A DNA stretch of 34,858 nucleotides from Nanobdellota archaeon (GTDB lineage: Archaea > Nanobdellota > Nanobdellia > Pacearchaeales > GW2011-AR1), in contig JBBSYA010000030.1 in NCBI GenBank assembly GCA_038045485.1, positions 1 through 34,858 of the forward strand, given 5' to 3'. Below are positions 2,084 through 30,861 of the stretch, piece by piece. The stretch's first letter is position 1. Each line of letters starts with the position of its first letter. The translations under genes were made by a program, and so were the position numbers. The notes under the pieces were generated by a model. It made no database searches and was not told the origin of the DNA. It saw only the letters and a list, made by a program, of their open reading frames with translations.

Positions 2084-3019
2084 TTACTTTTCAAGCTCTT
2101 CAATCAACTTTTCAATAGGTATAGTCTGAATATCATTCACAAAAATCTCTAAATTATCCGACATCTTGCTTTTTCTTGCATAACCCTCTACTAAGATCTC
2201 ACTTCCAAGCAATTCCTTTCTTTTCGGCATAAAACTTTCAGAACTTTCTAATTCCGCTTCAGTCGCAATTTTTTTTATCTGTTCGCTAAAAAGAACAGCC
2301 CTTATATTCTCGCTACCATCATCTAAAATTAAGGTAAGTATTGCATTTCTTTTTGGCGCAACATTACCATGAGTTTCACATTGATTCGTTTCAGATACTC
2401 TTTTTTTGCATTCAGGGCAGACATTATAAAAAGTTGGTCCAAATATCTGAACTATAAAAGCTCTTGAGGAAATATTATCATTTGACTGAATTTGCACAAT
2501 TTCTTTTTTCTGAACAACAGGTTTTGTTTGAACTTCTCCCAAAACAACGCTACTCAACTTCAAATCTCCAAAACTTCCAAGATGAAGTTCAGAATTCCTT
2601 ATATCGCCATTAGAAATTTCAACACTATCTCCTTCCTTAATTACTCCGTTTTCTATTAATCCAATGTGGTTTGTATCCCATAAAACGACTCTTATATTGC
2701 TGGTATCATCCGCAAGTAAAAAGCTTCCGATTTTTCCACTCTTACCATTTTTATTATATTCTGCTACTCGATTCAACTTAACAATTTTGCCTACGAGGTT
2801 TATCTTCTTCATTCCAGAAAGCAAACCTGATATTTTCATCTTTTGCTTATCAAAGCTTATTCCGAGCTCAGAAGCAATAATCTGTGCTGCACCCTCTTTA
2901 GAAATTAATCCCGAAAGTTTAGCTCGTTTAGCTTCAATCTTTCGTTCTATCTCTTCAATAGGAAGCTTAGAGCTCTCTGAAATCATCTTTATTATCTGGT
3001 CGTAATTTCCTTGAATCAT
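2084..3019 (-). CDS. Replication protein A-like ssDNA-binding protein (OB folds plus zinc ribbon)
   Basis: The N-terminal helical domain (PIEEIERKIEAKRAKLSGLISKEGAAQIIASELGI) is typical of archaeal RPA. Two OB-fold-like segments follow, with a CxxC..CxxH zinc ribbon (CPECKKRVSETNQCETHG). I place the start at the ATG at 3019-3017 (MIQGNYDQ). The ORF-track start at 3049 is a TTG inside a conserved non-coding block. Confidence 0.8.
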   Translation of the reverse strand: MIQGNYDQIIKMISESSKLPIEEIERKIEAKRAKLSGLISKEGAAQIIASELGISFDKQKMKISGLLSGMKKINLVGKIVKLNRVAEYNKNGKSGKIGSFLLADDTSNIRVVLWDTNHIGLIENGVIKEGDSVEISNGDIRNSELHLGSFGDLKLSSVVLGEVQTKPVVQKKEIVQIQSNDNISSRAFIVQIFGPTFYNVCPECKKRVSETNQCETHGNVAPKRNAILTLILDDGSENIRAVLFSEQIKKIATEAELESSESFMPKRKELLGSEILVEGYARKSKMSDNLEIFVNDIQTIPIEKLIEELEK

Positions 3020-3058
3020 TTTATTTTTGTTCTTTATATTTTGTAGCAAAAATAAAAG
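3020..3058 (-). promoter_or_regulatory. Conserved 39-nt upstream block, copy 1 of 3; probable shared promoter and 5' leader
   Basis: Plus-strand text: tttatttttgttctttatattttgtagcaaaaataaaag. It has the same length and 35/39 to 34/39 identity with 18384-18422 and 19090-19128. In all three cases it abuts the ATG. In gene sense it reads CTTTTATTTTTG..AATATAAA..AAAAATAAA-ATG, which contains TATA-like elements. Confidence 0.6.
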
Positions 3059-3131
3059 TCAGAAATTCAGCGAATTTCTGAATGTAAAAAACTCTTCACC
3101 CAAAACCCGAAGGGCTTAGTAAGTTTTTTAC
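3059..3131. repeat. Structured palindromic module, either a candidate ncRNA or a cis-regulatory element. It consists of a 10-bp hairpin, then a 10-bp outer stem enclosing a GAA-triloop hairpin.
   Basis: Hairpin: TCAGAAATTC-agc-GAATTTCTGA (3059-3081). Outer stem: GTAAAAAACT (3084-3093) pairs with AGTTTTTTAC (3122-3131). Inner hairpin: CCC-GAA-GGG (3106-3114). The same architecture occurs at 18424-18498, 18557-18678, 19129-19250 and 30790-30861. Confidence 0.55.
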
Positions 3132-3660: not shown

Positions 3661-3724
3661 TTATTTGTCCATATGTTAGCTTATTTATACAAATCTATTT
3701 AAATTAGAAATCCTATTCTAATAA

Positions 3725-4156
3725 ATGATATTCGGTCCTGAAAAATATGAAAAAGGTGTTTGGCTAGATTTAACAATTTCAAGAGCAGCCATTGAAGTAG
3801 ATACAATGATGCAAGGTAAAAATGAGGATTATCCAAATTTCCGTAAACTTAAAACTATTCTTCAAAATCATTACGATAAAACAAAATCCCAAAATCAATT
3901 AGACTATCTTTGCGATGAAAGTCTACACAAGGCATTAGTTTTTGATGTAATTCCAAAAACCTTTAATATAACTCGAGAAAATTGCAGAGGGTATGATCTC
4001 CCCGTTTATCTTGCAGGTTTAGAATTAGTTCTAGGACAATTTCAAAGTATAGAAAGTGCAAGCCCTGAAAGATTAACCTTATTATTACACTTTATATGCG
4101 ATTTGGGCCAAAGCAAATTGGCACATCATGAAAAGTCTGTCCGATATGCAGCATAA
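3725..4156 (+). CDS. Hypothetical protein (143 aa)
   Basis: ORF-track ORF with soluble-protein-like composition. I recognise no motif. Confidence 0.45.
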   Translation: MIFGPEKYEKGVWLDLTISRAAIEVDTMMQGKNEDYPNFRKLKTILQNHYDKTKSQNQLDYLCDESLHKALVFDVIPKTFNITRENCRGYDLPVYLAGLELVLGQFQSIESASPERLTLLLHFICDLGQSKLAHHEKSVRYAA

Positions 4157-4197: not shown

Positions 4198-4875
4198 ATG
4201 GCGCTCACAGATGCTCAAGCAAAAACAATAAAAGAACAGCTTCTAAAACAAGCAGAAAAATTTCCAGAAGATAAAAAAGAAGAAGTAATCAAATACATCA
4301 AATCAATGAATAATGAGCAGCTTGAAGAATTTCTAAAAAAGAATCAAGCTATGGCAAAAGAAGAACAAGCCAAAGAAGGACCAAACAAACCCTCTTCAAA
4401 ATCCTCTGGAACAGATTGTGTATACTGTTTAATTGCGGAAAAGCAGATAGAATCTTCTGCTATATACGAAGATAAAGATTATCTCGCGGTTCTCGAAATA
4501 AATCCTCTTTCAGAAGGCCACATCGTATTAATTCCTAAGAAACACATCGCAGAAACAAAAAATCTCAAAGCAAAAGCATTTACAATAGCCGATAAAATAG
4601 GAAAACATCTCGTCAAGCAATTAAAGGCAGAAAATTTTCAAATATCCAGTTCAGATGAACTAAAACACGCAGTAATCAACATTATTCCTACCTATAAAGG
4701 TAAAAAACTTGAGAGAAAACAGGCAGATAAAAAACAAATTCAAGAACTTGCAATAAAGATAGGTGAACTAAAGAAGCGCGCGAAAAAATCTCCTGTTAAA
4801 AAAGAAACTAACTTAGCAAAAGAACAGAACAAACTTGTTAAAGACATAATAAAATTACCGAGACGAATTCCTTAA
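4198..4875 (+). CDS. HIT-superfamily-like protein with a degenerate histidine triad and K/E-rich N- and C-terminal extensions
   Basis: The core CVYCLIAEKQIESSAIYEDKDYLAVLEINPLSEGHIVLIPKKH matches the HIT N-terminal half. Where HxHxHxx is expected, the sequence is KHAVINIIP, with only the first His retained. Confidence 0.65.
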   Translation: MALTDAQAKTIKEQLLKQAEKFPEDKKEEVIKYIKSMNNEQLEEFLKKNQAMAKEEQAKEGPNKPSSKSSGTDCVYCLIAEKQIESSAIYEDKDYLAVLEINPLSEGHIVLIPKKHIAETKNLKAKAFTIADKIGKHLVKQLKAENFQISSSDELKHAVINIIPTYKGKKLERKQADKKQIQELAIKIGELKKRAKKSPVKKETNLAKEQNKLVKDIIKLPRRIP

Positions 4876-5466
4876 ACGTTTTCTATTCTTTCCTAATAAC
4901 TCATTAAAAAGAAGATTTAAAGGTAATATTAAAAGAGAGAAATAAGCCAAGATTAATATTAAGGAATAAAATTCATTTGTGGGCATAAATGAAATACATG
5001 ACTTAAACAAGCAGTTTACATTTGCTGCAGGACCTAAATAGAGAACTATTGGCAATAAAAAGAGGATATGGATCAGACTATAAGTCCACGCATTAATTTC
5101 TTTTTTGTTAATAATCCAAATAGCCAAAAATGCGAGAGGCATAGTCAAAACATGCATAGCTAATGAAACTGCCAGAGGTAATGCTGACCCAAAAAACTGG
5201 AAGTTTCCAGTATAAGAAATACCCCATAAAAGATAAATTATATAATCCATTACATAAACAAACATTCCAAAGAAGCCAATGCAGAATTCTGCAATAAGGA
5301 GTTTATTTGCTCTAAAAAGAATAGCAGTTCCCAATATCAGAGGGACATGATTACATAACCAAAAAAATTGAAAAATCGCATCAACTTGATAAAGGAAAAA
5401 AAGCCTCAACAAAGCTAAACTAATCAAGAATATACCAATTAAATTCAATATCTTGTTTCTTTCCAT
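4855..5466 (-). CDS. Polytopic membrane protein (203 aa), function unknown
   Basis: Hydrophobic ORF with about 6 TM segments. No motif recognised. Confidence 0.55.
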   Translation of the reverse strand: MERNKILNLIGIFLISLALLRLFFLYQVDAIFQFFWLCNHVPLILGTAILFRANKLLIAEFCIGFFGMFVYVMDYIIYLLWGISYTGNFQFFGSALPLAVSLAMHVLTMPLAFLAIWIINKKEINAWTYSLIHILFLLPIVLYLGPAANVNCLFKSCISFMPTNEFYSLILILAYFSLLILPLNLLFNELLGKNRKRLRNSSR

Positions 5467-5498
5467 AGTTGATTAATAGTTTTCTATATAATAAACTT

Positions 5499-5570
5499 TC
5501 TAAATCCTACTGATAAGTTTATTTGTAATTCTAAATCCTACTGATAAGTTTATTTGTAATTCTAAATCCT
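5499..5570. repeat. Tandem direct repeat: a 31-bp unit in about 2.3 copies, spanning the stop codon of the 5531-6079 gene
   Basis: The unit tctaaatcctactgataagtttatttgtaat occurs at 5499-5529 and again identically at 5530-5560. A partial third copy, tctaaatcct, occupies 5561-5570. Confidence 0.9.
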
Positions 5571-6079
5571 TCGAATTTGATTGCAAATTCTCCCGTATCC
5601 TGACAATGATAAACCTTATGAGTAATTGTATAAAACCAGCCACGTATCTGACTAAAATTAGCTTCTTTCAAAATAGGATAATTCCCTGAGTTTAAAACAA
5701 GATGAGGAGCCTCAAAAATATACGGAGATTTTCCAAAACACTTTTCAAATTCTCTTATTCCAACCTGCAGATACTCTAAATCTCTTACTTCTCTAAACTC
5801 ACCATACCTGTGAGTTACACCATGCATACCAAGAGTTTTATTTAAACTCAGGATATATTCACACCAACTCTTATTTTCAGCAATAGATTTATTTTCAAAT
5901 AAAGGAATAACCATCAAACTACTGCCCCTATCTAAAATTCCCTGTGAACAAGGAATAACCGGACTAACATCATCTATCTGTCTTGGTAAAATAGTGCGGA
6001 CGGCAATTAAAACAAGGAAAACAATAAGAATACCAATAATACCTCCAATAAAATAACTCTTTAATTTTTTAAGTTTCAT
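5531..6079 (-). CDS. Membrane-anchored DUF2334 / polysaccharide-deacetylase-like protein (tentative)
   Basis: N-terminal TM anchor, then LMVIPLFENKSI..NKSWCEYILSLNKTLGMHGVTHRYGEF. This resembles the ..vvP.....HGytH...EF pattern I associate with DUF2334. Its start lies 1 nt after the stop of the prepilin peptidase gene. Confidence 0.4.
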   Translation of the reverse strand: MKLKKLKSYFIGGIIGILIVFLVLIAVRTILPRQIDDVSPVIPCSQGILDRGSSLMVIPLFENKSIAENKSWCEYILSLNKTLGMHGVTHRYGEFREVRDLEYLQVGIREFEKCFGKSPYIFEAPHLVLNSGNYPILKEANFSQIRGWFYTITHKVYHCQDTGEFAIKFEGFRITNKLISRI

Positions 6080-14822: not shown

Positions 14823-15070
14823 TTTTCCTCTTTTTATATTAAAGTTATTAAGATTGGGTTATTTTAAAACCTTCTCAATGCTTGCTTCGGCTCGCATAAT
14901 TTAAGTTTCGTAAACATTATTTAAATAAAAATTATTATTAATCTATAAAATTCGGAAGCAGAAGTTTAGACAACAAATCTCGCTAAAGAAGAGGTAATTA
15001 TCAGGGTTTTATGCGTTATTAAAAATTTGGGGAAATTGGCGAAACCTCTCTTAAAAAAGGCGAGCGCGAG

Positions 15071-15126: not shown

Positions 15127-15630
15127 TTATTTCTTCAGCAACAAAAATCCAACAACAACTACAGAAACAATAAACATTATGCTGTTCTTAATCGTATCAG
15201 AGTAAATATAATCCTTCAATTCTGAAAGTCCAGAGCCCAATCCTGCATTTGACGTGCTTGGCAAAACATGATTTAAGAGAGGAAACTGATGAAAAGCCCC
15301 AAGAATAATAACCAGCATACAGATAACAAAACCTATAATCGCAAGAGGTTTAGTAAACTGGACATCCTTTGCTACGAAAACCAGCACTAATAAAACTGAA
15401 AAAGATAAAATTAAAACTACCGACATCAAAGCAATCGCTCCAGCCATATATTCTGTTAATCCCGTTGAAGAAACAACAAGAAAGGTAAGCATAAAACTAA
15501 GCAACGCAAGAACAAAATTATTTCCTGGCAGCTTTATTTTTTTTAATCCGGCATAAATTAAGATTATCAGAGCTATCATCAGCCATATGGGCGTGTATTC
15601 TCCAAGGAAATTAAGTGAAATCATAATCAA
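15127..15630 (-). CDS. Small polytopic membrane protein, distant paralog of 22695-23261 and 23453-23941
   Basis: 167 aa with 4-5 TM segments. The first helix is followed by a basic loop and a short motif (LIYAGLKKIKLPGNNFVLALLSF), comparable to the paralog motif PFLL.F..VF.IL.KS.I.G...N.II. Confidence 0.55.
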   Translation of the reverse strand: MIMISLNFLGEYTPIWLMIALIILIYAGLKKIKLPGNNFVLALLSFMLTFLVVSSTGLTEYMAGAIALMSVVLILSFSVLLVLVFVAKDVQFTKPLAIIGFVICMLVIILGAFHQFPLLNHVLPSTSNAGLGSGLSELKDYIYSDTIKNSIMFIVSVVVVGFLLLKK

Positions 15631-15726
15631 GAATATTAATTTCTATTTTTAAAGCTTTCTATGTGTCGTAACTAAATAGTGGTGTTAAATAATAAGATTT
15701 AAAAAGATTGGTTATTTTAGGGGATT

Positions 15727-16587: not shown

Positions 16588-17499
16588 ATGAAAATCGACC
16601 TACATAATCATTTACTTATTGGATTTCAGCCAGAATGGCTTAGAGTTCAAGGATATAGCAGTAGAAATCTGGCATGGGTTCTTGTAAATTCAGCTATAAG
16701 AAAAGATATAGGATTGGTTGCTATAACCAGTGAAAATTTTGAAATTCCTGAAGGAAGTATTCATGATAGATTTACACAAATTTGTGAAGATGCTAAATAT
16801 TTCAATGAAGAAACCTGTGGTTGCTCTGCTGAAAAAATAGGCGAAAATGTATTAAGAATAGACAACCTCGGTCATCCCATCAATTGGAATTCAATTTATG
16901 TTGTTAACAGCCAAACAGTTATAGTTGAAGAAGCTGGAAGAAGATATGACCATTTAGTTATTGGAAGCAATCAAGTTCCTAACAGAAAAGATTTTGATTA
17001 TGCTCTTAAATATTGCAGAGATAATAATTTACTTAATTTTTTAGAACATCCGGCAGTAGAGAATCATTTAGGTACAGGACTTGTTAAAGCAGAAAGATTA
17101 ATCCAAAAATATGGCGACATAATCACGGGAATTGAAGGTCATAATGCTCAAATGATTTGGCCAGAATCCTGGGCAAAAGCCCCTTTAATCGGACCCTTTA
17201 ATAAAGGTGTTAATAAAAAAGCGATTGGACTCGCAAATAAAGTTGAAAAACCATTTATTGCTACTTCCGATGCGCATTCTCCTAATCAAATTGGCGCAGC
17301 TAATATTAAAACAGAAGATAATCCCCAATTTTCTAACGAATTAGAAGTTTTTTCTTATATAAAAAAGAAAATTAGTGGGCGAGAGTATTATAGTAATAAT
17401 AGTTATGTTAGCCCTTATTCTTGGATGAAAAATGCTGCAATCTTTCAAATCGGAAGAGCAATTTTTAGAATGCGCGCAAACAAATCTTATCTAAAATAA
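16588..17499 (+). CDS. PHP-domain metal-dependent phosphoesterase
   Basis: The motifs MKIDLHNHLL, FLEHPAVE, GIEGHNAQ and ATSDAHSPNQIG match the PHP family. It starts 9 nt after the preceding PHP gene. Confidence 0.7.
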   Translation: MKIDLHNHLLIGFQPEWLRVQGYSSRNLAWVLVNSAIRKDIGLVAITSENFEIPEGSIHDRFTQICEDAKYFNEETCGCSAEKIGENVLRIDNLGHPINWNSIYVVNSQTVIVEEAGRRYDHLVIGSNQVPNRKDFDYALKYCRDNNLLNFLEHPAVENHLGTGLVKAERLIQKYGDIITGIEGHNAQMIWPESWAKAPLIGPFNKGVNKKAIGLANKVEKPFIATSDAHSPNQIGAANIKTEDNPQFSNELEVFSYIKKKISGREYYSNNSYVSPYSWMKNAAIFQIGRAIFRMRANKSYLK

Positions 17500-18383
17500 T
17501 CTTCAAACGTTGCAGAATTCTTTGAGTTCGGACGTGGGCGAGCTTGCTGTTGATTTTGTTGATTATTCTGCTGTTGCTGTCCTTTTTGTTTTTGCTGTTG
17601 TGGTTGTCTATTTTGTTGTTGCATAGGTTGCTCGAAACTTTCTTGCTCTTCAACTTCTTCTCTCCTTCCTCTTTGTTTATCCAGAAGCGGATTAAGAACC
17701 TTCGAAAAAGATTGTTGGGTAGCTTTTAAATCTCCAGAAATACTCGAAATAGCATCACCATATTCTCCCATTTTTCTTATAACGGCTCTCTGAATATCCT
17801 GAATAACCGCTTCTATTTTTTTCATCCTATTATCAATATCCTGAAGCTGAAAACTTAATTCAGATTTTGATTTTACAAGAACATCAACTTGCTCTTTTGT
17901 TTTTTTCATAATTTCTTCAACTTGTTGTCGCGCAATATCTCTAACTGTTTCCAAATCTAAAGTCTGCTGATAGTAGCCTTCTTGCGGTTGTTCTGTATAT
18001 TGTTGCTGATATGCTGCGGGATCATATTGCTGCTGTTGAGCGTCCGCATATTGTTGTTGGGTGTATTGCGGTTGCGCATATTGTTGAGGCGCATATTGCT
18101 GCTGTTGGGCTGGAATAGGCGGTAACGTGGCTTCTTGTTGTGCCATCGGTTGATTGCTATAATTTGGAACAGACATATATTGTTGTGAAGAAGAATTGTC
18201 AGTCATTATACTTGGTTGCAATCCAGAATTCTCTTCAGAAACAACCGCACTCTTTATATTGGACTGAGAAATTGCCTCACTAACTTCTCTTGGAGAAACT
18301 CCTTCTTCCATAAGACTATTAGCAATCTGATTCTGAGACATTCCAGATTGTTTCATTGCAGATATTCGTTCTAATAGAGCCAT
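17487..18383 (-). CDS. Q/Y-rich low-complexity (prion-like) protein with a small N-terminal helical domain and a central coiled coil
   Basis: I place the start at the ATG at 18383-18381 (MALLERISAMKQSGMSQNQIANSLMEEGVSPREVSEAISQ). A Q/Y/P-rich segment follows (PAQQQQYAPQQYAQPQYTQQQYADAQQQQYDPAAYQQQY), then a coiled coil, then a Q/N-rich tail (QQQNRQPQQQKQKGQQQQNNQQNQQQ). The ORF-track TTG start at 18413 lies inside the conserved non-coding block. Confidence 0.7.
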   Translation of the reverse strand: MALLERISAMKQSGMSQNQIANSLMEEGVSPREVSEAISQSNIKSAVVSEENSGLQPSIMTDNSSSQQYMSVPNYSNQPMAQQEATLPPIPAQQQQYAPQQYAQPQYTQQQYADAQQQQYDPAAYQQQYTEQPQEGYYQQTLDLETVRDIARQQVEEIMKKTKEQVDVLVKSKSELSFQLQDIDNRMKKIEAVIQDIQRAVIRKMGEYGDAISSISGDLKATQQSFSKVLNPLLDKQRGRREEVEEQESFEQPMQQQNRQPQQQKQKGQQQQNNQQNQQQARPRPNSKNSATFEDYFR

Positions 18384-18422
18384 TTTATTTTTGTTGTTTA
18401 TATTTTGAGACAAAAATAAAAG
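18384..18422 (-). promoter_or_regulatory. Conserved 39-nt upstream block, copy 2 of 3
   Basis: Sequence: tttatttttgttgtttatattttgagacaaaaataaaag. It differs from copy 3 at 1 position and from copy 1 at 4. Confidence 0.6.
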
Positions 18423-18423
18423 A

Positions 18424-18498
18424 TCAGAAAATCAATGATTTTCTGAGTCTCAAAAAATTTTGTAAGGCCAAGACGAAGTCTTTAGTCTAATTTTTGAG
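18424..18498. repeat. Structured palindromic module: hairpin plus an outer stem enclosing a GAA-triloop hairpin
   Basis: Hairpin: TCAGAAAATCA-a-TGATTTTCTGA (18424-18446). Outer stem: CTCAAAAAATT (18449-18459) pairs with AATTTTTGAG (18489-18498) with a 1-nt bulge. Inner hairpin: AGAC-GAA-GTCT (18471-18481). Confidence 0.55.
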
Positions 18499-18556
18499 TT
18501 ATTTTTATCTCCTTTTTATTATTTGTATATGTTATTTTTGTTTACAAAAAGAACAA

Positions 18557-18678
18557 TCAGAAAATTCTTAATTTTCTGAATTTCAAAAAGCTTGTAAGTC
18601 AAAGCGAAGTCTTCAAAACGTAAGTTTTGAATGAATTAGGAAGTTTTTAATTTCCTAAGCTTTTAGTTGCTTTTTGAA
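18557..18678. repeat. Structured palindromic module, long form, with no ORF directly downstream (copy A of a 121-bp duplicate)
   Basis: Positions 18558-18678 match 19130-19250 at 119/121. The two differences (18559 a vs 19131 t; 18577 t vs 19149 a) are the two partners of one stem base pair. Confidence 0.85.
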
Positions 18679-18720
18679 TTCTTTTTTGTTATTTATTTAT
18701 GTTATTTAGGGTTTTAATAT

Positions 18721-19089
18721 TTAATGTTTCAATGCTTTTCTAATCATCTCTTCAACATCAGAAATTCTTGCAACTTCCATAGGCTGAAACATCTGAAATT
18801 GATGTTGCAAAACTTGAAACTCGTTTTTTCTAACATAATTATCAGAATCTTCAACTATCCTTTCAATAGCCATCTTTATTTTTCTTATTTCCTCAACAAT
18901 CAGATTCATCTGGCCCCTAAGCTTAGAAATTTCAGCCTGCGTATCTTCTTTTTCAGAAACAAGATTTTCTCCAATCATAATTACTCTATCTTTGATTATA
19001 TTCTGTTTTTCTTCTATATCTCGAAGTTTTACTGCAATATCTGCAATAAAAGATTCCAAAGGATTAGGATATTGTTCTTGGCTGGCCAT
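18721..19089 (-). CDS. Small coiled-coil protein (122 aa), function unknown
   Basis: I place the start at the ATG at 19089-19087 (MASQEQYPNPLESFIADIAVKLRDIEEKQNIIKDRV...). It has heptad-like E/K/I-rich helices. It is preceded by the conserved 39-nt block, so this strand is preferred over the mirror plus-strand ORF. Confidence 0.6.
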   Translation of the reverse strand: MASQEQYPNPLESFIADIAVKLRDIEEKQNIIKDRVIMIGENLVSEKEDTQAEISKLRGQMNLIVEEIRKIKMAIERIVEDSDNYVRKNEFQVLQHQFQMFQPMEVARISDVEEMIRKALKH

Positions 19090-19128
19090 TTTATTTTTGT
19101 TGTTTATAATTTGAGACAAAAATAAAAG
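19090..19128 (-). promoter_or_regulatory. Conserved 39-nt upstream block, copy 3 of 3
   Basis: Sequence: tttatttttgttgtttataatttgagacaaaaataaaag. Confidence 0.6.
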
Positions 19129-19250
19129 TCTGAAAATTCTTAATTTTCAGAATTTCAAAAAGCTTGTAAGTCAAAGCGAAGTCTTCAAAACGTAAGTTTT
19201 GAATGAATTAGGAAGTTTTTAATTTCCTAAGCTTTTAGTTGCTTTTTGAA
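19129..19250. repeat. Structured palindromic module, long form (copy B of the 121-bp duplicate)
   Basis: Hairpin: TCTGAAAATT-ctt-AATTTTCAGA (19129-19151). Outer stem: TTCAAAAAGC (19154-19163) pairs with GCTTTTTGAA (19241-19250). Inner hairpins: TTCAAAAC-gta-aGTTTTGAA and TTAGGAA-gttttta-aTTTCCTAA. Confidence 0.85.
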
Positions 19251-19333
19251 ATTGTTGTTTTTATCTCTTTTTATTATATTTTATATAGTGATATTGGGTT
19301 TAAAATCCTTCTCATATTCTAGAACTTAAAATT

Positions 19334-23261: not shown

Positions 23262-23452
23262 ATCTATCTTAAATTTTGTTTATTTAAATACCTTTTGCTC
23301 GCCCTCGCTTTTTAATGTGGGGCTTACGCCCATTTTTCAATAAGTAATAATTCTATAAAACATCAAACTAGGAGCTTCTCAAAAATTCGCTTTCTAAGTG
23401 GGGGCATTATTAATAAAAAGGTTAAAATGATAAGGAAGTGCAAATAAAATAA

Positions 23453-23941
23453 TTATTTCTTCTCGTCTTTTCCAACCTTAAGAACAGTAACTATAGCACC
23501 AACAATAAGTGCAATAAATATAACATTGCTAACTACTTCAGGATTGCTTTTGACATAGTCCATCATTCCAGTAATATAAAGAGCTACAGCCCCAACAGAA
23601 AGGAGTGCTATAATCCCTAAAGTCCATTTTAAACCTTCAGAATTCTTCAGCATATCTCCGCTCGTTTCTCCCCAAATAAATCCATAAAGCATTAATGCTA
23701 TAAATAAAATAAATAGGGCTATAACAAAAAAGATTACAAAATTTTGCAACCAGTCGATATATTTAGTAAAACTAATTAAAATAGCCGCAAATACAAAACC
23801 AATAATGGCATTAATCTGGTGTTTTCCGTCTCCGAGAATTTTAGATTTTTCTAAAATAGCAAAGACAAGAGTAAAAACCAATAAAAATGGCAGAATTACA
23901 TCCTGAAAAATAGCATTAGATAAAAAGGTTCCTGTAGCCAT
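23453..23941 (-). CDS. Small polytopic membrane protein, paralog of 22695-23261
   Basis: See the paralog motif above. The gene is preceded (23942-24065) by a degenerate relative of the upstream module at 3020-3131; for example, aatgtaaaaaact is identical at 24005-24017 and 3081-3093. Confidence 0.6.
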   Translation of the reverse strand: MATGTFLSNAIFQDVILPFLLVFTLVFAILEKSKILGDGKHQINAIIGFVFAAILISFTKYIDWLQNFVIFFVIALFILFIALMLYGFIWGETSGDMLKNSEGLKWTLGIIALLSVGAVALYITGMMDYVKSNPEVVSNVIFIALIVGAIVTVLKVGKDEKK

Positions 23942-24079
23942 GTTGTTTTTACTTTTTTAATTTTAGTTATTGAGAAAAACATAGATGGAAATCATAACTT
24001 CCAAAATGTAAAAAACTTAACCTAAAACTAAAAAGTGTATAGGCGTCTTTTACCTTAGTCTTCCTCTTTTTGGGGCTGA

Positions 24080-25135: not shown

Positions 25136-25218
25136 AAAGTAGAAAATAATTCTTCTTCTACCCACACGAAACTAAACTCTAAAAATACCTCCTCCTCATC
25201 CAGTCAAATTACTACTTC

Positions 25219-25405
25219 AAATTTTCTGCACAATATAAAAAATACAATTTCTGCAGAAAATTTGTTTTGATAATCAAAAAAACAACGCGCACCACGCCAT
25301 AAATGGTGTAGTTTGAATGCGCTTGTTTTTTGGAGATAGAAAAAATCTGAAGTTGCTCAGCAAAGCAACTTCTGCGGACTAAAGTCCGCAGTTTATTTTT
25401 TCTAT
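25219..25405. repeat. Cluster of three palindromic structures upstream of hef
   Basis: (1) AAATTTTCTGCA (25219-25230) pairs with TGCAGAAAATTT (25252-25263). (2) CAAAAAAACAACGCGCA (25275-25291) pairs imperfectly with TGCGCTTGTTTTTTG (25318-25332) and encloses CACCA..TGGTG. (3) ATAGAAAAAAT (25336-25346) pairs with ATTTTTTCTAT (25395-25405). The third encloses GAAGTTGCT/AGCAACTTC and TGCGGACT-aa-AGTCCGCA, forming a three-way junction. Confidence 0.7.
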
Positions 25406-25503
25406 ATTAGGAAATCGTGAGGCATTAAAGTTTAGGAAATCCCTAAGTTTAATTATTTTCTTAGTATACAAAAATAATTAAAGACTCCTCCAAGTTTCTA
25501 TTT

Positions 25504-29375: not shown

Positions 29376-29523
29376 GATTACGAAGCGAAGAAATTGAGCA
29401 AGAGGCGAGAATTTACATTCCAGAAAAAACAATGTTTTTTAGGGCCCCGAAAATCATTGATTTTCGCGGTAAGTAAATTAAGATAAGATAAAAATGCAAA
29501 TTCGAGAAAGATTTCTAAGCGAG
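29376..29523. repeat. Nested palindromic element (three layers) immediately downstream of the M16 peptidase stop codon
   Basis: The outer flanks match 3615-3660, with AGAAAT (29389-29394) pairing with ATTTCT (29511-29516). The next layer, GAATTTaCATT (29409-29419) pairing with AATGcAAATTC (29493-29503), matches the hairpin at 15071-15112. The innermost layer holds AAAAAAC-aat-GTTTTTT (29424-29440) and CGAAAATCA-t-TGATTTTCG (29448-29466). Confidence 0.7.
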
Positions 29524-29525
29524 TA

Positions 29526-30737
29526 TTACTTATCTTCAGGAACCAACGCTATAAAAGAATATTTGTTAATTTTAGCTAACTTTTTTACATCGGCAAGTTT
29601 AACTTTTCTTATATTTTCTTCATACCTATAGCTTCTTTTTGCATCACCCCAAACTTCATTATAAAGCAAATCTATCATCTGCCCTTGTGAATCTTCTCGC
29701 GAAATCTTACTATTACCAATAAGTTGCTCCTTAACCTGATTTAGTTCATTCTCGCTAAGAGTTTTTAATTTGGTAAACTCCTCAATAATTAATTTTTTGA
29801 CGATTTCCACCTTATCTGCAGTAGTTCCAACAAAAATAGAATTATAACCGAATCTTTTGGCACCATTATATCCGCCCTTAACAACATAAGCTAAATTTCT
29901 TTTTTCTCTTATCTCCTGAAATAATCTCGAACTCATTCCACCAGTCATTAAACAAGATAAGACTTGCGAAACATAAGATTGCTTGGTGAACGCGCGAGGG
30001 GCATGATAAGCTAAAATCAAATTCGCCTGGTCAATTCCTTTTTTTCTCTCAATTTTCTGCCCATTCTTTAACGTAATTTTTGGTTCAGGAATTTTAAATC
30101 CAGATTTTTTAAAGTTTTTCTCGGCGAATTCACATAAGCTTTTAAAATCACAATCTCCAACGACACAAAGAATTAAATTTTGGCTTCCATAGGCTTTTTG
30201 AAACTTTTCACGCATTTTTTCTCGAGTAATGGAGTTCATTGATTTCTCTGTTCCTATTAAATCATGTCCAAGATTTCCTGCGTAAAGCAAGCCCTGAATT
30301 TTATCAGTAATAAATATACTTGGAACATCACGCCGCATTTTCATTTCTTCAAAGATAACTAACCTTTCCTTATTCATTTCATCCTCATCAAAAAGGGGAT
30401 TGAGAATCATATCACTCAAAACATCCAAAGCCATATCTAAATGTTTACTCGGCATCTTGCACCAGAAAGCTGTAAGTTCTTCTTCAGTAAAACCATTTAG
30501 AATTCCTCCGTTTTTTTCAATATCCTCTGAAATTTGCTTAGGCGTTCTATTCTTGGTGCTTCTATAAAGCATGTGTTCGATAAAATGAGAAATTCCTTTT
30601 TCTTCTTCTGCTTCATGCAACCCGCCATGCTGAACCGCAATAGCAACACTCACAACACCCGACCATTTTCTCTCTTCAAAAATAACAGTCATACCATTTT
30701 TAAGTATTTTCTTAAAGAATCGCGGTTTTTCAATCAT
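29526..30737 (-). CDS. M16 (pitrilysin/insulinase) family zinc peptidase
   Basis: The inverted zinc motif HxxEH occurs in GISHFIEHMLYRST. 403 aa, consistent with a two-domain M16 architecture. Confidence 0.85.
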   Translation of the reverse strand: MIEKPRFFKKILKNGMTVIFEERKWSGVVSVAIAVQHGGLHEAEEEKGISHFIEHMLYRSTKNRTPKQISEDIEKNGGILNGFTEEELTAFWCKMPSKHLDMALDVLSDMILNPLFDEDEMNKERLVIFEEMKMRRDVPSIFITDKIQGLLYAGNLGHDLIGTEKSMNSITREKMREKFQKAYGSQNLILCVVGDCDFKSLCEFAEKNFKKSGFKIPEPKITLKNGQKIERKKGIDQANLILAYHAPRAFTKQSYVSQVLSCLMTGGMSSRLFQEIREKRNLAYVVKGGYNGAKRFGYNSIFVGTTADKVEIVKKLIIEEFTKLKTLSENELNQVKEQLIGNSKISREDSQGQMIDLLYNEVWGDAKRSYRYEENIRKVKLADVKKLAKINKYSFIALVPEDK

Positions 30738-30789
30738 CTTTTCCTCTTTTCCATTTTCTTTTTTTTACTCCATTTTGAAAAAAGAAAAA

Positions 30790-30861
30790 TCAGAAATTCT
30801 TCGAATTTCTGAGCATTAAAAAGCTTGTTTGTCAAAGCGAAGCTTTTATCTGCTTTTTAAT
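30790..30861. repeat. Structured palindromic module, short form, upstream of the M16 peptidase gene
   Basis: Hairpin: TCAGAAATTC-ttc-GAATTTCTGA (30790-30812). Outer stem: ATTAAAAAGC (30815-30824) pairs with GCTTTTTAAT (30852-30861). Inner hairpin: AAAGC-GAA-GCTTT (30834-30846). An alternative pairing is AAAAGCTT (30819-30826) with AAGCTTTT (30840-30847). Confidence 0.55.

Follow-up and report, generated by a model that had tools for sequence, protein, structure and literature searches.

What is a recurrent, hairpin-rich stretch of non-coding DNA doing directly in front of the genes of an archaeon? The question is raised by positions 18,424 to 18,498 of contig JBBSYA010000030.1 (Nanobdellota archaeon, assembly GCA_038045485.1; 34,858 nt, the whole of which was analyzed and is called the window here). 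The original prediction, made from the letters of the window, described five loci with one architecture, namely a hairpin (HP1) beside an A/T-rich block and an outer stem enclosing a small GAA-loop hairpin, and proposed a family of non-coding RNAs (ncRNAs), leaders or attenuators. All the elements that it listed lie where it had placed them. Judging from sequence and distribution, and with middling confidence, we read the module as a family of palindromic insertions resembling MITEs (miniature inverted-repeat transposable elements), which would be co-transcribed as the structured 5′ leader of housekeeping genes in a clade of Woesearchaeota (DPANN archaea).

The module is a cassette of about 125 nt (about 175 nt with a nested insert), of which the window has five complete copies, a degenerate one and a partial relative. 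Read in the direction of the downstream gene, its parts follow in a constant order: inverted repeat A (IR-A), a spacer of 2–4 nt, HP1, a spacer of 1 nt, inverted repeat C (IR-C) and the ATG. IR-A has a 9–12 bp outer stem of the form xxxAAAAAxx...xxTTTTTxxx around a small C-TTC-G hairpin, HP1 has a 10-bp stem and a 3-nt loop, and IR-C consists of a T-rich arm, a loop of 3–18 nt and an A-rich arm, its last pair taking in the A of the ATG. IR-C corresponds to the predicted A/T-rich block, which does stand beside HP1 and which, because it has complementary arms of 11–12 bp, is better described as a third inverted repeat. In copy 2, on the minus strand, HP1 (18424..18446) is a 23-nt perfect palindrome, TCAGAAAATC-AAT-GATTTTCTGA. 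IR-A (18449..18498) has outer arms at ~18449-18459 and 18489-18498, according to the fold and the alignment, around the inner hairpin AGAC-GAA-GTCT at 18471-18481 (loop TTC in gene sense). IR-C (18383..18421) has 12-bp arms at 18383-18394 and 18410-18421 and a 15-nt loop, and its last paired base is the A in the start codon (ATG) of gene 17487-18383 (-).

The HP1 pattern TCWGAAA-N9-TTTCWGA matches the window exactly five times (at 3059, 18424, 18557, 19129 and 30790, copies 1 to 5), compared with a mean of 0.16 in shuffled sequences, none of which reached five in 100 trials; the predicted recurrence at five loci was thus correct. All five copies also contain the outer stem and the inner hairpin with its GAA loop (TTC in gene sense), and all are oriented alike relative to a minus-strand gene. 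The minimum free energy (MFE) fold of copy 2 agrees, giving the three-hairpin layout on either strand, with z-scores of -4.6 in gene sense, -3.4 on the window's plus strand and -4.6 with DNA parameters. Perfect inverted repeats of at least 9 bp number 50 in the window, versus 19–31 in mononucleotide shuffles, and the module is the source of much of the intergenic excess.

In total, the family comprises about 40 copies, spread over the window, metagenomes and a relative that is approximately 80% identical. Among genome records the closest is the Woesearchaeota metagenome-assembled genome CAYIVX01, which is syntenic with the window at 74–89% nucleotide identity and has 11 copies in 48 kb; metagenome contigs contribute at least 20 more. 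Exact protein matches to the window came from Hainich groundwater assemblies of the 0.1-µm fraction (ERZ1292632, ERZ1292638 and ERR3858118). Pattern scans of genome and metagenome collections returned mostly chance matches, together with genuine full-layout copies in CAYIVX01 (L005, L013, L025, L031, L043 and L104) and on 16 low-GC metagenome contigs. A covariance model (R1), built from an alignment of 28 copies (A2), recovered the pattern-found copies at 60–98 bits. It also detected diverged copies beyond the reach of the search patterns, such as L005:1828 and those in which HP1 reads TCTGGAAATT...AATTTCCAGA (L186:4828 and L217:3521), CCAGAAAATC...GATTTTCTGG (L186:4566) or ACAGAAA...TTTCTGT (L178:2581 and L236:6325). 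In a short form of the module (L122:662 and L236:6325), a plain GC hairpin replaces IR-A. The search patterns required GAAA/TTTC, an A5 run and CGAAG, and the invariance of these in the metagenome copies is by construction; the covarying positions had been left free, and in model-found copies the required positions vary as well, always with compensation.

Stem changes on both arms, proposed earlier as a signature of selection on RNA structure, are statistically supported over the 28 copies from several genomes. With the three helices given, 94.4% of the A2 cells were paired versus 79.9% after shuffling, and 111 cells showed two-sided changes versus 36.5 in shuffles; neither value was reached in any of 500 shuffles. 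The covariation score was 0.377, compared with 0.109 for shuffled alignments, and sliding the partners by 1–3 columns abolished the signal (score ≤0.09). RNAalifold, run without a prior structure, returned the same helices. In the IR-A part of the alignment, columns 6-16 pair with 46-57 (outer stem) and columns 23-27 with 31-35 (inner hairpin).

The covariation is real, and its signature is of the palindrome type more than of the classic RNA type. None of the 23 RNAalifold pairs showed a one-sided change, which weakens the RNA part of the earlier claim. Within HP1, 318 of 320 cells are Watson-Crick, and direct flips of pairs are common (C-G 14 vs U-A 14; A-U 14 vs C-G 12). The HP1 loop is flipped too, being AAG in seven copies and its complement CTT in seven others. 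Mismatches are rare and in gene sense consist of 16 A·C or C·A against a single G·U, several of them recurring across copies and hence not independent. The TTC loop of the inner hairpin is never flipped; in gene sense, G·U is seen among the peripheral inner pairs. Given the absence of one-sided changes, the flipped loops and the A·C mismatches, a constraint on a DNA palindrome or on both strands fits as well as or better than one on a single RNA strand. Overall, the variation fits a DNA-palindrome constraint, a both-strand constraint, or conversion from arm to arm or copy to copy.

The further claim that structure is kept rather than a protein half-site finds support in HP1. At its position 3 and at the degenerate inner positions 8–10, the arms are complementary in 31 of 32 copies, whereas about 26% would be expected if they varied independently. 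Distant copies alter the half-site on both arms (TCTGGAA..TTCCAGA, CCAGAAA..TTTCTGG, ACAGAAA..TTTCTGT). Degenerate positions that differ freely between the halves, as in a dimeric operator, were not found in HP1, the half-sites of which are conserved.

Several observations point to insertion and spread. The FlaJ-like gene of the window is free of the module (14823-14900: TATA, then a 5′ untranslated region (UTR) with a Shine-Dalgarno (SD) motif, ATGGCAACTG...), whereas its syntenic ortholog in CAYIVX01 (L005:6325-6413) has the same TATA, a relic AAAGGAGAATGAACTG, the cassette and a second SD-ATGGCACGAG, the cassette lying between a relic SD-ATG-AACTG and the working SD-ATG. This locus is an orthologous site that is empty in the window and occupied in CAYIVX01. 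Direct duplications of the start region, with the ATG included, stand on either side of the copies at L148:124 (34 nt, 16 exact) and L123:363 (33 nt). Within 30 nt 5′ of IR-A, an SD-like motif occurs in 8 of 32 copies versus 9.5% by chance, a modest enrichment (P = 0.009). A relic ATG 5′ of IR-A was rejected as a general feature (12 of 32 copies versus 28% by chance, not significant), as was a target duplication that always runs from the native +1, since the one at L148:124 begins upstream of the predicted start. Tandem copies exist in the window (copies 3 and 2) and at L013:5461/5597, and differing subtypes occupy orthologous positions (copy 4 versus L005:1828, copy 3 versus L005:2366). Like MITEs, the cassette is small, non-coding and multicopy (6 in 35 kb, about 40 overall) and is present or absent between relatives; extra assemblies of copies 1 and 2 showed no presence/absence polymorphism of the main cassette. 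The original prediction had considered that all copies might be recent duplicates of a mobile palindrome. The module does act like a proliferating insertion element, but its copies have diverged and yet still pair, and so do not qualify as identical, recently made duplicates.

A nested insert of 50 nt with two hairpins, carried by copies 3 and 4 (18610-18659 and 19182-19231), provides a further sign of mobility. Its position is precisely the C-TTC-G loop, where, in gene sense, CTT...CTT borders it, and the same 50 nt occur in other genomes in two other subtypes of the module (L188, ~3990-4060; L013:3723, ~3700-3760) and, outside modules, nowhere else in the DNA examined. In L239, a near-identical contig of low coverage from another Hainich sample, copy 3 is without the insert and copy 4 has it, which argues for a recently mobile mini-element that targets hairpin loops. 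By analogy, it looks like an active element of the PATE or IS200/IS605-derivative kind.

The predicted leader placement was borne out in that the module always stands in a fixed orientation directly 5′ of a start codon, so that "leader" names the right neighborhood. Of 28 copies, 23 have the start of IR-C at the second base past HP1, and in 21 the last base of IR-C is the A of the ATG; in the others, an SD and then an ATG follow 13–19 nt further on. The downstream genes include those for uS15, uL14 (in two genomes), uL30, Rpb3/RpoD, Rpb6/RpoK, GINS51, a DHH/RecJ-like protein, MinD/ParA, GatA, LemA, RPA, M16 peptidase, pilins and a FlaJ-like protein, and two further products were read from their sequences as probable LeuRS and CDC48. 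They form a broad housekeeping set and no metabolic regulon.

How such a leader would be transcribed can be judged against the other genes of the window. A very sharp canonical promoter, rwAAgs-TTTAWAAA, precedes genes without the module (e.g., 15625-15660, 3690-3724 and 23262-23300). In 14 of 27 such genes the TATA starts exactly 29 nt 5′ of the ATG, and most mRNAs should therefore be leaderless; a minority of genes have a leader of 14–24 nt with an AAGAGG-type SD. With a weight matrix built from the window's own canonical promoters, a sense-strand B recognition element (BRE)/TATA of at least 7 bits, placing the transcription start site (TSS) 0–30 nt 5′ of IR-A, was found at 11 of 31 copies, versus 4.3% of random 36-nt windows; at 5 bits or more the counts were 19 of 31 versus 10%. 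Antisense-strand matches at the module were confined to 4 of 31 copies. Nine copies have the end of a co-oriented open reading frame (ORF) 5–22 nt before IR-A, and their upstream TATA is weak, which suggests co-transcription with the upstream gene. In the short-form copies L122:662 and L236:6325, inspection by eye found TATA-like sequences from which transcription would start at the base of the first hairpin or close to it. No conserved promoter of the module's own was recognized on either strand, and Rfam, with which a comparison had been suggested, has no match to it at the gathering threshold across the whole window or at E up to 1 in 18350-19320; these results do not favor the predicted stand-alone ncRNA. 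Most simply, the module appears to be a transcribed leader or intercistronic spacer, and a weak internal promoter is possible.

As a MITE-like insertion family, the cassettes would have multiplied in genomes across a group of Woesearchaeota, lodging in a single orientation between the working ATG and the original start signals, which are a canonical BRE/TATA and sometimes a relic SD/ATG. Co-transcription, driven by the promoter of the gene itself or coming from the upstream cistron, would then turn each into part of the gene-sense RNA, as a structured 5′ leader or as an intercistronic spacer. IR-A and HP1, with their U-tracts, may cause pausing or partial termination of transcription or may obstruct 5′ exonucleases, and IR-C may display an SD-less AUG at the foot of its helix. 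Arm complementarity could be kept up by the copying of the element, through hairpin DNA or through conversion from arm to arm or copy to copy, and selection against copies that harm an essential gene would contribute to its perfection.

A number of findings weigh against this explanation. Terminal inverted repeats spanning the cassette are absent (the outermost arms are both A-rich and not complementary), as are target-site duplications of constant short length (the repeats measure 16–34 nt and are clear in 2–3 of 29 copies), and the annotated ORFs of the window include no transposase (DDE, RAYT or TnpA). Flanking repeats exceeded the 95th percentile of mismatched controls in only 3 of 29 copies, one of them a tandem pair, and the 99th percentile in two. 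The uL14 copies in L147 and L236 share one site and have different stems, which could equally reflect long-term maintenance in situ by selection. The excess of A·C over G·U mismatches is not predicted by simple selection on a sense-strand RNA fold. Co-transcription is inferred from promoter-like sequences, and about one third of the copies have no recognizable upstream TATA. Finally, T5–T6 runs in the leaders of essential genes are expected to terminate archaeal RNA polymerase.

The leading rival, which we consider unlikely, treats the module as a self-contained promoter/operator cassette. Its BRE/TATA would be ACAAGC-TTTTTGAAAT, i.e., the purine-rich junction and the T-rich 3′ arm of IR-A; transcription would start about 29 nt further on, at the last bases of HP1, and IR-C would be the whole 5′ UTR. 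HP1 (-22 to +1) would serve as the operator for a dimeric regulator of a large housekeeping regulon, and IR-A would additionally end upstream read-through. The T-rich arm and the ACAAG or GAAGA before it do lie at a constant distance from HP1 in all copies, the internal candidate promoter being 9–10 nt 5′ of it, and by the 29-nt rule the TSS would fall at the HP1/IR-C junction, precisely at the beginning of the IR-C helix. The conserved HP1 half-sites TCWGAAA would suit an operator, and where a stop codon lies 5–22 nt before IR-A there is little space for a separate intergenic promoter. The candidate site has a mean of 2.3 bits, which makes it more BRE/TATA-like than other T5 runs (-2.9) and random positions (-5.9); real promoters, at 8–16 bits, score much higher. 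The T-rich arm is missing altogether in the two short-form copies, and it is 5′ of IR-A that canonical promoters are enriched. A protein-binding site would also leave unexplained why the arms of HP1 match at its degenerate positions and why distant copies change both half-sites together.

Other promoter candidates were rejected. The center of HP1 is not TATA-like (e.g., ATCCCCGAT) and its flanks are not mirror images, which speaks against a symmetric BRE-TATA-BRE bidirectional promoter, and an antisense promoter in the IR-C loop is seen only in three near-identical window copies. A Bacteroidetes or crAss-like phage promoter (TAnnTTTG), suggested by TATTTTTG, was dropped on account of the archaeal gene content. 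Among the gene products of the window (32% G+C) are aEF-1beta, an OB-fold protein that resembles RPA and carries DUF2240, an ATPase of the FlaI/VirB11 type, a FlaJ-like membrane protein, several consecutive pilins with class-III signal peptides, and a Hef helicase and nuclease. A viral or plasmid origin was likewise discarded, as the 48 matches that the pattern had in IMG/VR were due to chance and none was upheld by the covariance model, and so were origin recognition box (ORB) repeats of a replication origin: the copies range over 28 kb, each belongs to a gene start, and there is no orc1/cdc6 context.

It is rather improbable, in our estimate, that the cassette is a novel type of "start-site module", more than junk, in an otherwise leaderless archaeon. 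Such a module might arise by insertion that is specific to start regions, depends on DNA hairpins and leaves long (~16–34 bp), variable target duplications; we know of no description of this mechanism for prokaryotic miniature elements. Or it might have been recruited genome-wide for housekeeping genes, with HP1 as a hairpin or cruciform promoter/operator element and IR-C clamping the 5′ end beside an SD-less AUG, so as to give a pseudo-leaderless start or a processing site for mRNAs with a 5′-AUG.

We regard it as decidedly unlikely that the module is a terminator or insulator, in which IR-A acts as a bidirectional terminator and HP1 with its T-run as a second one, both ending the upstream transcript, while the rest is the ordinary upstream region of the next gene. 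The T5–T6 of the 3′ arm and A5–A6 of the 5′ arm of IR-A would suit this role, as would strict Watson-Crick pairing, free of wobbles on both strands, which a two-way terminator requires. In nine copies IR-A follows a co-oriented stop codon by 5–22 nt, and similar A-tract...T-tract clamped hairpins occur in other intergenic DNA of the window (25277-25405). However, copies 1 and 5 lie between divergent genes, with nothing to terminate; the orientation follows the downstream start codon and not an upstream 3′ end; and modules are present inside conserved runs of ribosomal-protein genes (uL14, uL30). The sequence conservation of HP1 and the existence of IR-C would remain unexplained.

Strong two-sided covariation in three helices, the low gene-sense z-score and the leader position would also agree with a regulatory RNA leader, that is, a protein- or ligand-responsive attenuator, a thermometer or a riboswitch-like element that is selected for RNA structure and is not mobile. 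Some IR-C regions allow alternative pairings (e.g., GTTCGTT-TTGT-AACGAAC versus a long stem), IR-C is an A/U-rich helix containing the start codon, and the constant orientation of the inner TTC loop fits as well. We nevertheless hold this to be quite improbable. The helices are almost without G·U and their mismatches are A·C in the sense strand, the HP1 loop occurs in both orientations, and few unpaired nucleotides beyond the A/T tracts are conserved in the manner of a ligand pocket. An attenuator, as predicted, or a riboswitch finds no regulon among the downstream genes and no counterpart in Rfam, and the occupied and empty site together with the flanking duplications points to insertion and not to ancient cis-regulation.

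A stand-alone small RNA (sRNA) from the plus strand, antisense to the genes and running from HP1 through IR-A to the T-run after it, is very improbable: it would fold well, end in T-runs, turn the rare mismatches into G·U wobbles and could draw on TTTATAT in the IR-C loop of copies 1, 2 and 4, but that loop is only 3–4 nt long and without the TATA-like sequence in most copies, antisense promoter matches are rare, the promoter would otherwise fall within unrelated coding sequences, and the element is tied to start codons. C/D-box or H/ACA sRNAs, tRNA-like RNAs and known riboswitches were rejected, as the copies have no box motifs in common and no match in Rfam or, with no tRNA or tmRNA found in the window, in ARAGORN.

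The remaining copies, all on the minus strand, follow the same plan. Copy 1 (3019..3131; 90.9 bits) lies upstream of the RPA-like gene 2084-3019 (-), whose product has the OB-fold/DUF2240 architecture, and consists of IR-C at 3019-3057, HP1 at 3059-3081 and IR-A at 3084-3131 with the inner hairpin at 3106-3114. Copy 3 (18530..18678; 63.9 bits), in tandem with copy 2, has no gene of its own and comprises an IR-C-like repeat (18530-18555), HP1 (18557-18579) and IR-A (18582-18678) with the nested insert. Copy 4 (19089..19253; 60.9 bits) has IR-C at 19089-19127, HP1 at 19129-19151 and IR-A, likewise interrupted by the insert, at 19151-19253; it precedes gene 18721-19089 (-), which encodes a 122-aa coiled-coil protein. 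This gene and the adjacent gene behind copy 2 (17487-18383; 298 aa, Q-rich) are both kept in the relative (L005), and neither product belongs to a Pfam family. Copy 5 (30754..30861; 86.3 bits) stands upstream of the M16 peptidase gene 29526-30737 (-); its IR-C (30754-30788) is followed by a 16-nt SD-containing tail and the ATG, HP1 is at 30790-30812, and IR-A at 30815-30861 encloses the inner hairpin at 30834-30846.

Copy 6 (23942..24056), upstream of gene 23453-23941 (-), is degenerate and weak (22.8 bits, E 0.6) and was assigned on the layout in common, as read off the sequence: an outer stem GTAAAAGAC...TTTTTTAC, a decayed HP1 (TGGAAGT-TATG-ATTTCCA, with one G·T) and an IR-C-like TGTTTTT...AAAAACA 5′ of the ATG. 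The related hairpin predicted at 29448-29466 turned out to be part of a weak partial relative on the plus strand (29418..29483; 25.3 bits, E 0.24) and not a full module. Located between the 3′ end of the M16 peptidase gene and a gene of the major facilitator superfamily (MFS), it consists of a mini A6C-ATT-GT6 hairpin followed by a CGAAAATCA-T-TGATTTTCG hairpin inside a GC clamp. Its counterpart in the relative is 92% identical over 37 nt (L031:1750-1786, with the twin hairpin at L031:1740-1815), and it is possibly a terminator that is loosely related to the module.

The cassette also leaves traces in assembly and annotation. Short-read contigs end inside it (e.g., L289 and L239), and mechanically called ORFs run through IR-C to a common TTG (17487-18413, 18721-19119 and 2084-3049), which gives false N-termini of the MSQNINNKNKM- and MLQNIKNKNKM-type. 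Elsewhere in the window, a perfect 31-nt tandem duplication (TTCTAAATCCTACTGATAAGTTTATTTGTAA twice) is found at 5498-5559, at the junction of genes 5531-6079 (-) and 4855-5466 (-). The intergenic stretch before the Hef helicase gene (25136-25503) contains more A-tract...T-tract clamped multi-hairpins at 25218-25264 and 25277-25331, and at 25336-25405 a similar clamp around two GC-rich hairpins; this stretch has no Rfam match, and its hairpins may be terminators or another repeat or ncRNA family.

Comparison with described systems suggests that the cassette is new to Rfam and the searchable literature and is kin in type to known miniature palindromic repeats. Nothing specific on a DPANN promoter or palindrome motif was found in that literature, and the cassette has no description there or in Rfam. 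A MITE census lists a "Woesearchaea" genome among those with the highest archaeal densities, 105 per Mb, and contains no description that could be matched to this cassette (PMC11602168). As in classical MITEs, the units are small, non-autonomous, AT-rich and numerous per Mb (about 6 in 35 kb here), differ in presence between relatives and take up nested insertions; unlike them, the cassette has no terminal inverted repeats with a target-site duplication of fixed length, and its duplications, in few copies, vary between 16 and 34 nt.

Among bacterial palindromic intergenic repeats that mRNAs carry, the Correia/NEMIS elements of Neisseria, ERIC/IRU, pneumococcal BOX and RUP are likewise short (~100–150 nt), multicopy, non-coding inverted repeats that form hairpins, and the modular build of the cassette resembles BOX A-B-C. 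They lie near genes, are co-transcribed and can affect transcription, mRNA stability and processing. Unlike them, the cassette has an archaeal (DPANN) host and three perfect hairpins in tandem, has neither terminal inverted repeats of the whole unit nor a constant short target duplication, and is strictly oriented before start codons, with its last helix ending on the AUG. We know of no transposase or RNase III-type processing associated with it.

Rickettsia palindromic elements (RPE) are selfish palindromes in the reduced genomes of obligate symbionts. Like the cassette, they are palindromic repeats of ~100–150 nt in small AT-rich genomes that leave essential genes intact, and relic start codons upstream of the cassette suggest a comparable insertion, at the very 5′ end of genes. 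RPEs, however, lie in frame within ORFs and are translated, whereas the working ORF begins after the cassette. REP/BIME and the IS200/IS605-derived PATEs share Watson-Crick hairpin arms and compensatory stem changes between copies with it. Their function depends on the hairpin DNA, which is recognized as single strands, and IS200/IS605 insertions occur without target duplication. The nested insert, two hairpins in a hairpin loop beside CTT, is reminiscent of insertions of the PATE kind. The cassette itself yielded no GTAG-type head, RAYT or TnpA, and REPs are found at gene 3′ ends, whereas cassettes are at 5′ ends. Intrinsic (bidirectional) and archaeal oligo-T terminators recall IR-A, flanked by an A-tract and a T-tract, and HP1 with the T5 run after it; in contrast to these, the cassette is tied to a downstream start codon, also occurs between divergent genes and always includes IR-C.

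DPANN archaea are uncultivated organisms with tiny genomes, in which the control of gene expression is almost unexplored. Recognizing the element improves the annotation of such genomes, where it accounts for assembly breaks and spurious ORF extensions, and the covariance model with the defined coordinates is a handle for mining metatranscriptomes. The nested, polymorphic 50-nt insert suggests that hairpin-loop-targeted mobile DNA may be active in these cells. Extrapolated from 6 copies in 35 kb, the element would make up about 2% of the genome, and it sits exactly between the promoter and the start codon of ribosomal-protein, RNA polymerase and replication genes. It would be either a remarkably well-tolerated parasite of essential genes or a common control or expression device, and it is a natural test case for the translation of SD-less, leadered mRNAs in an archaeon dominated by leaderless ones.

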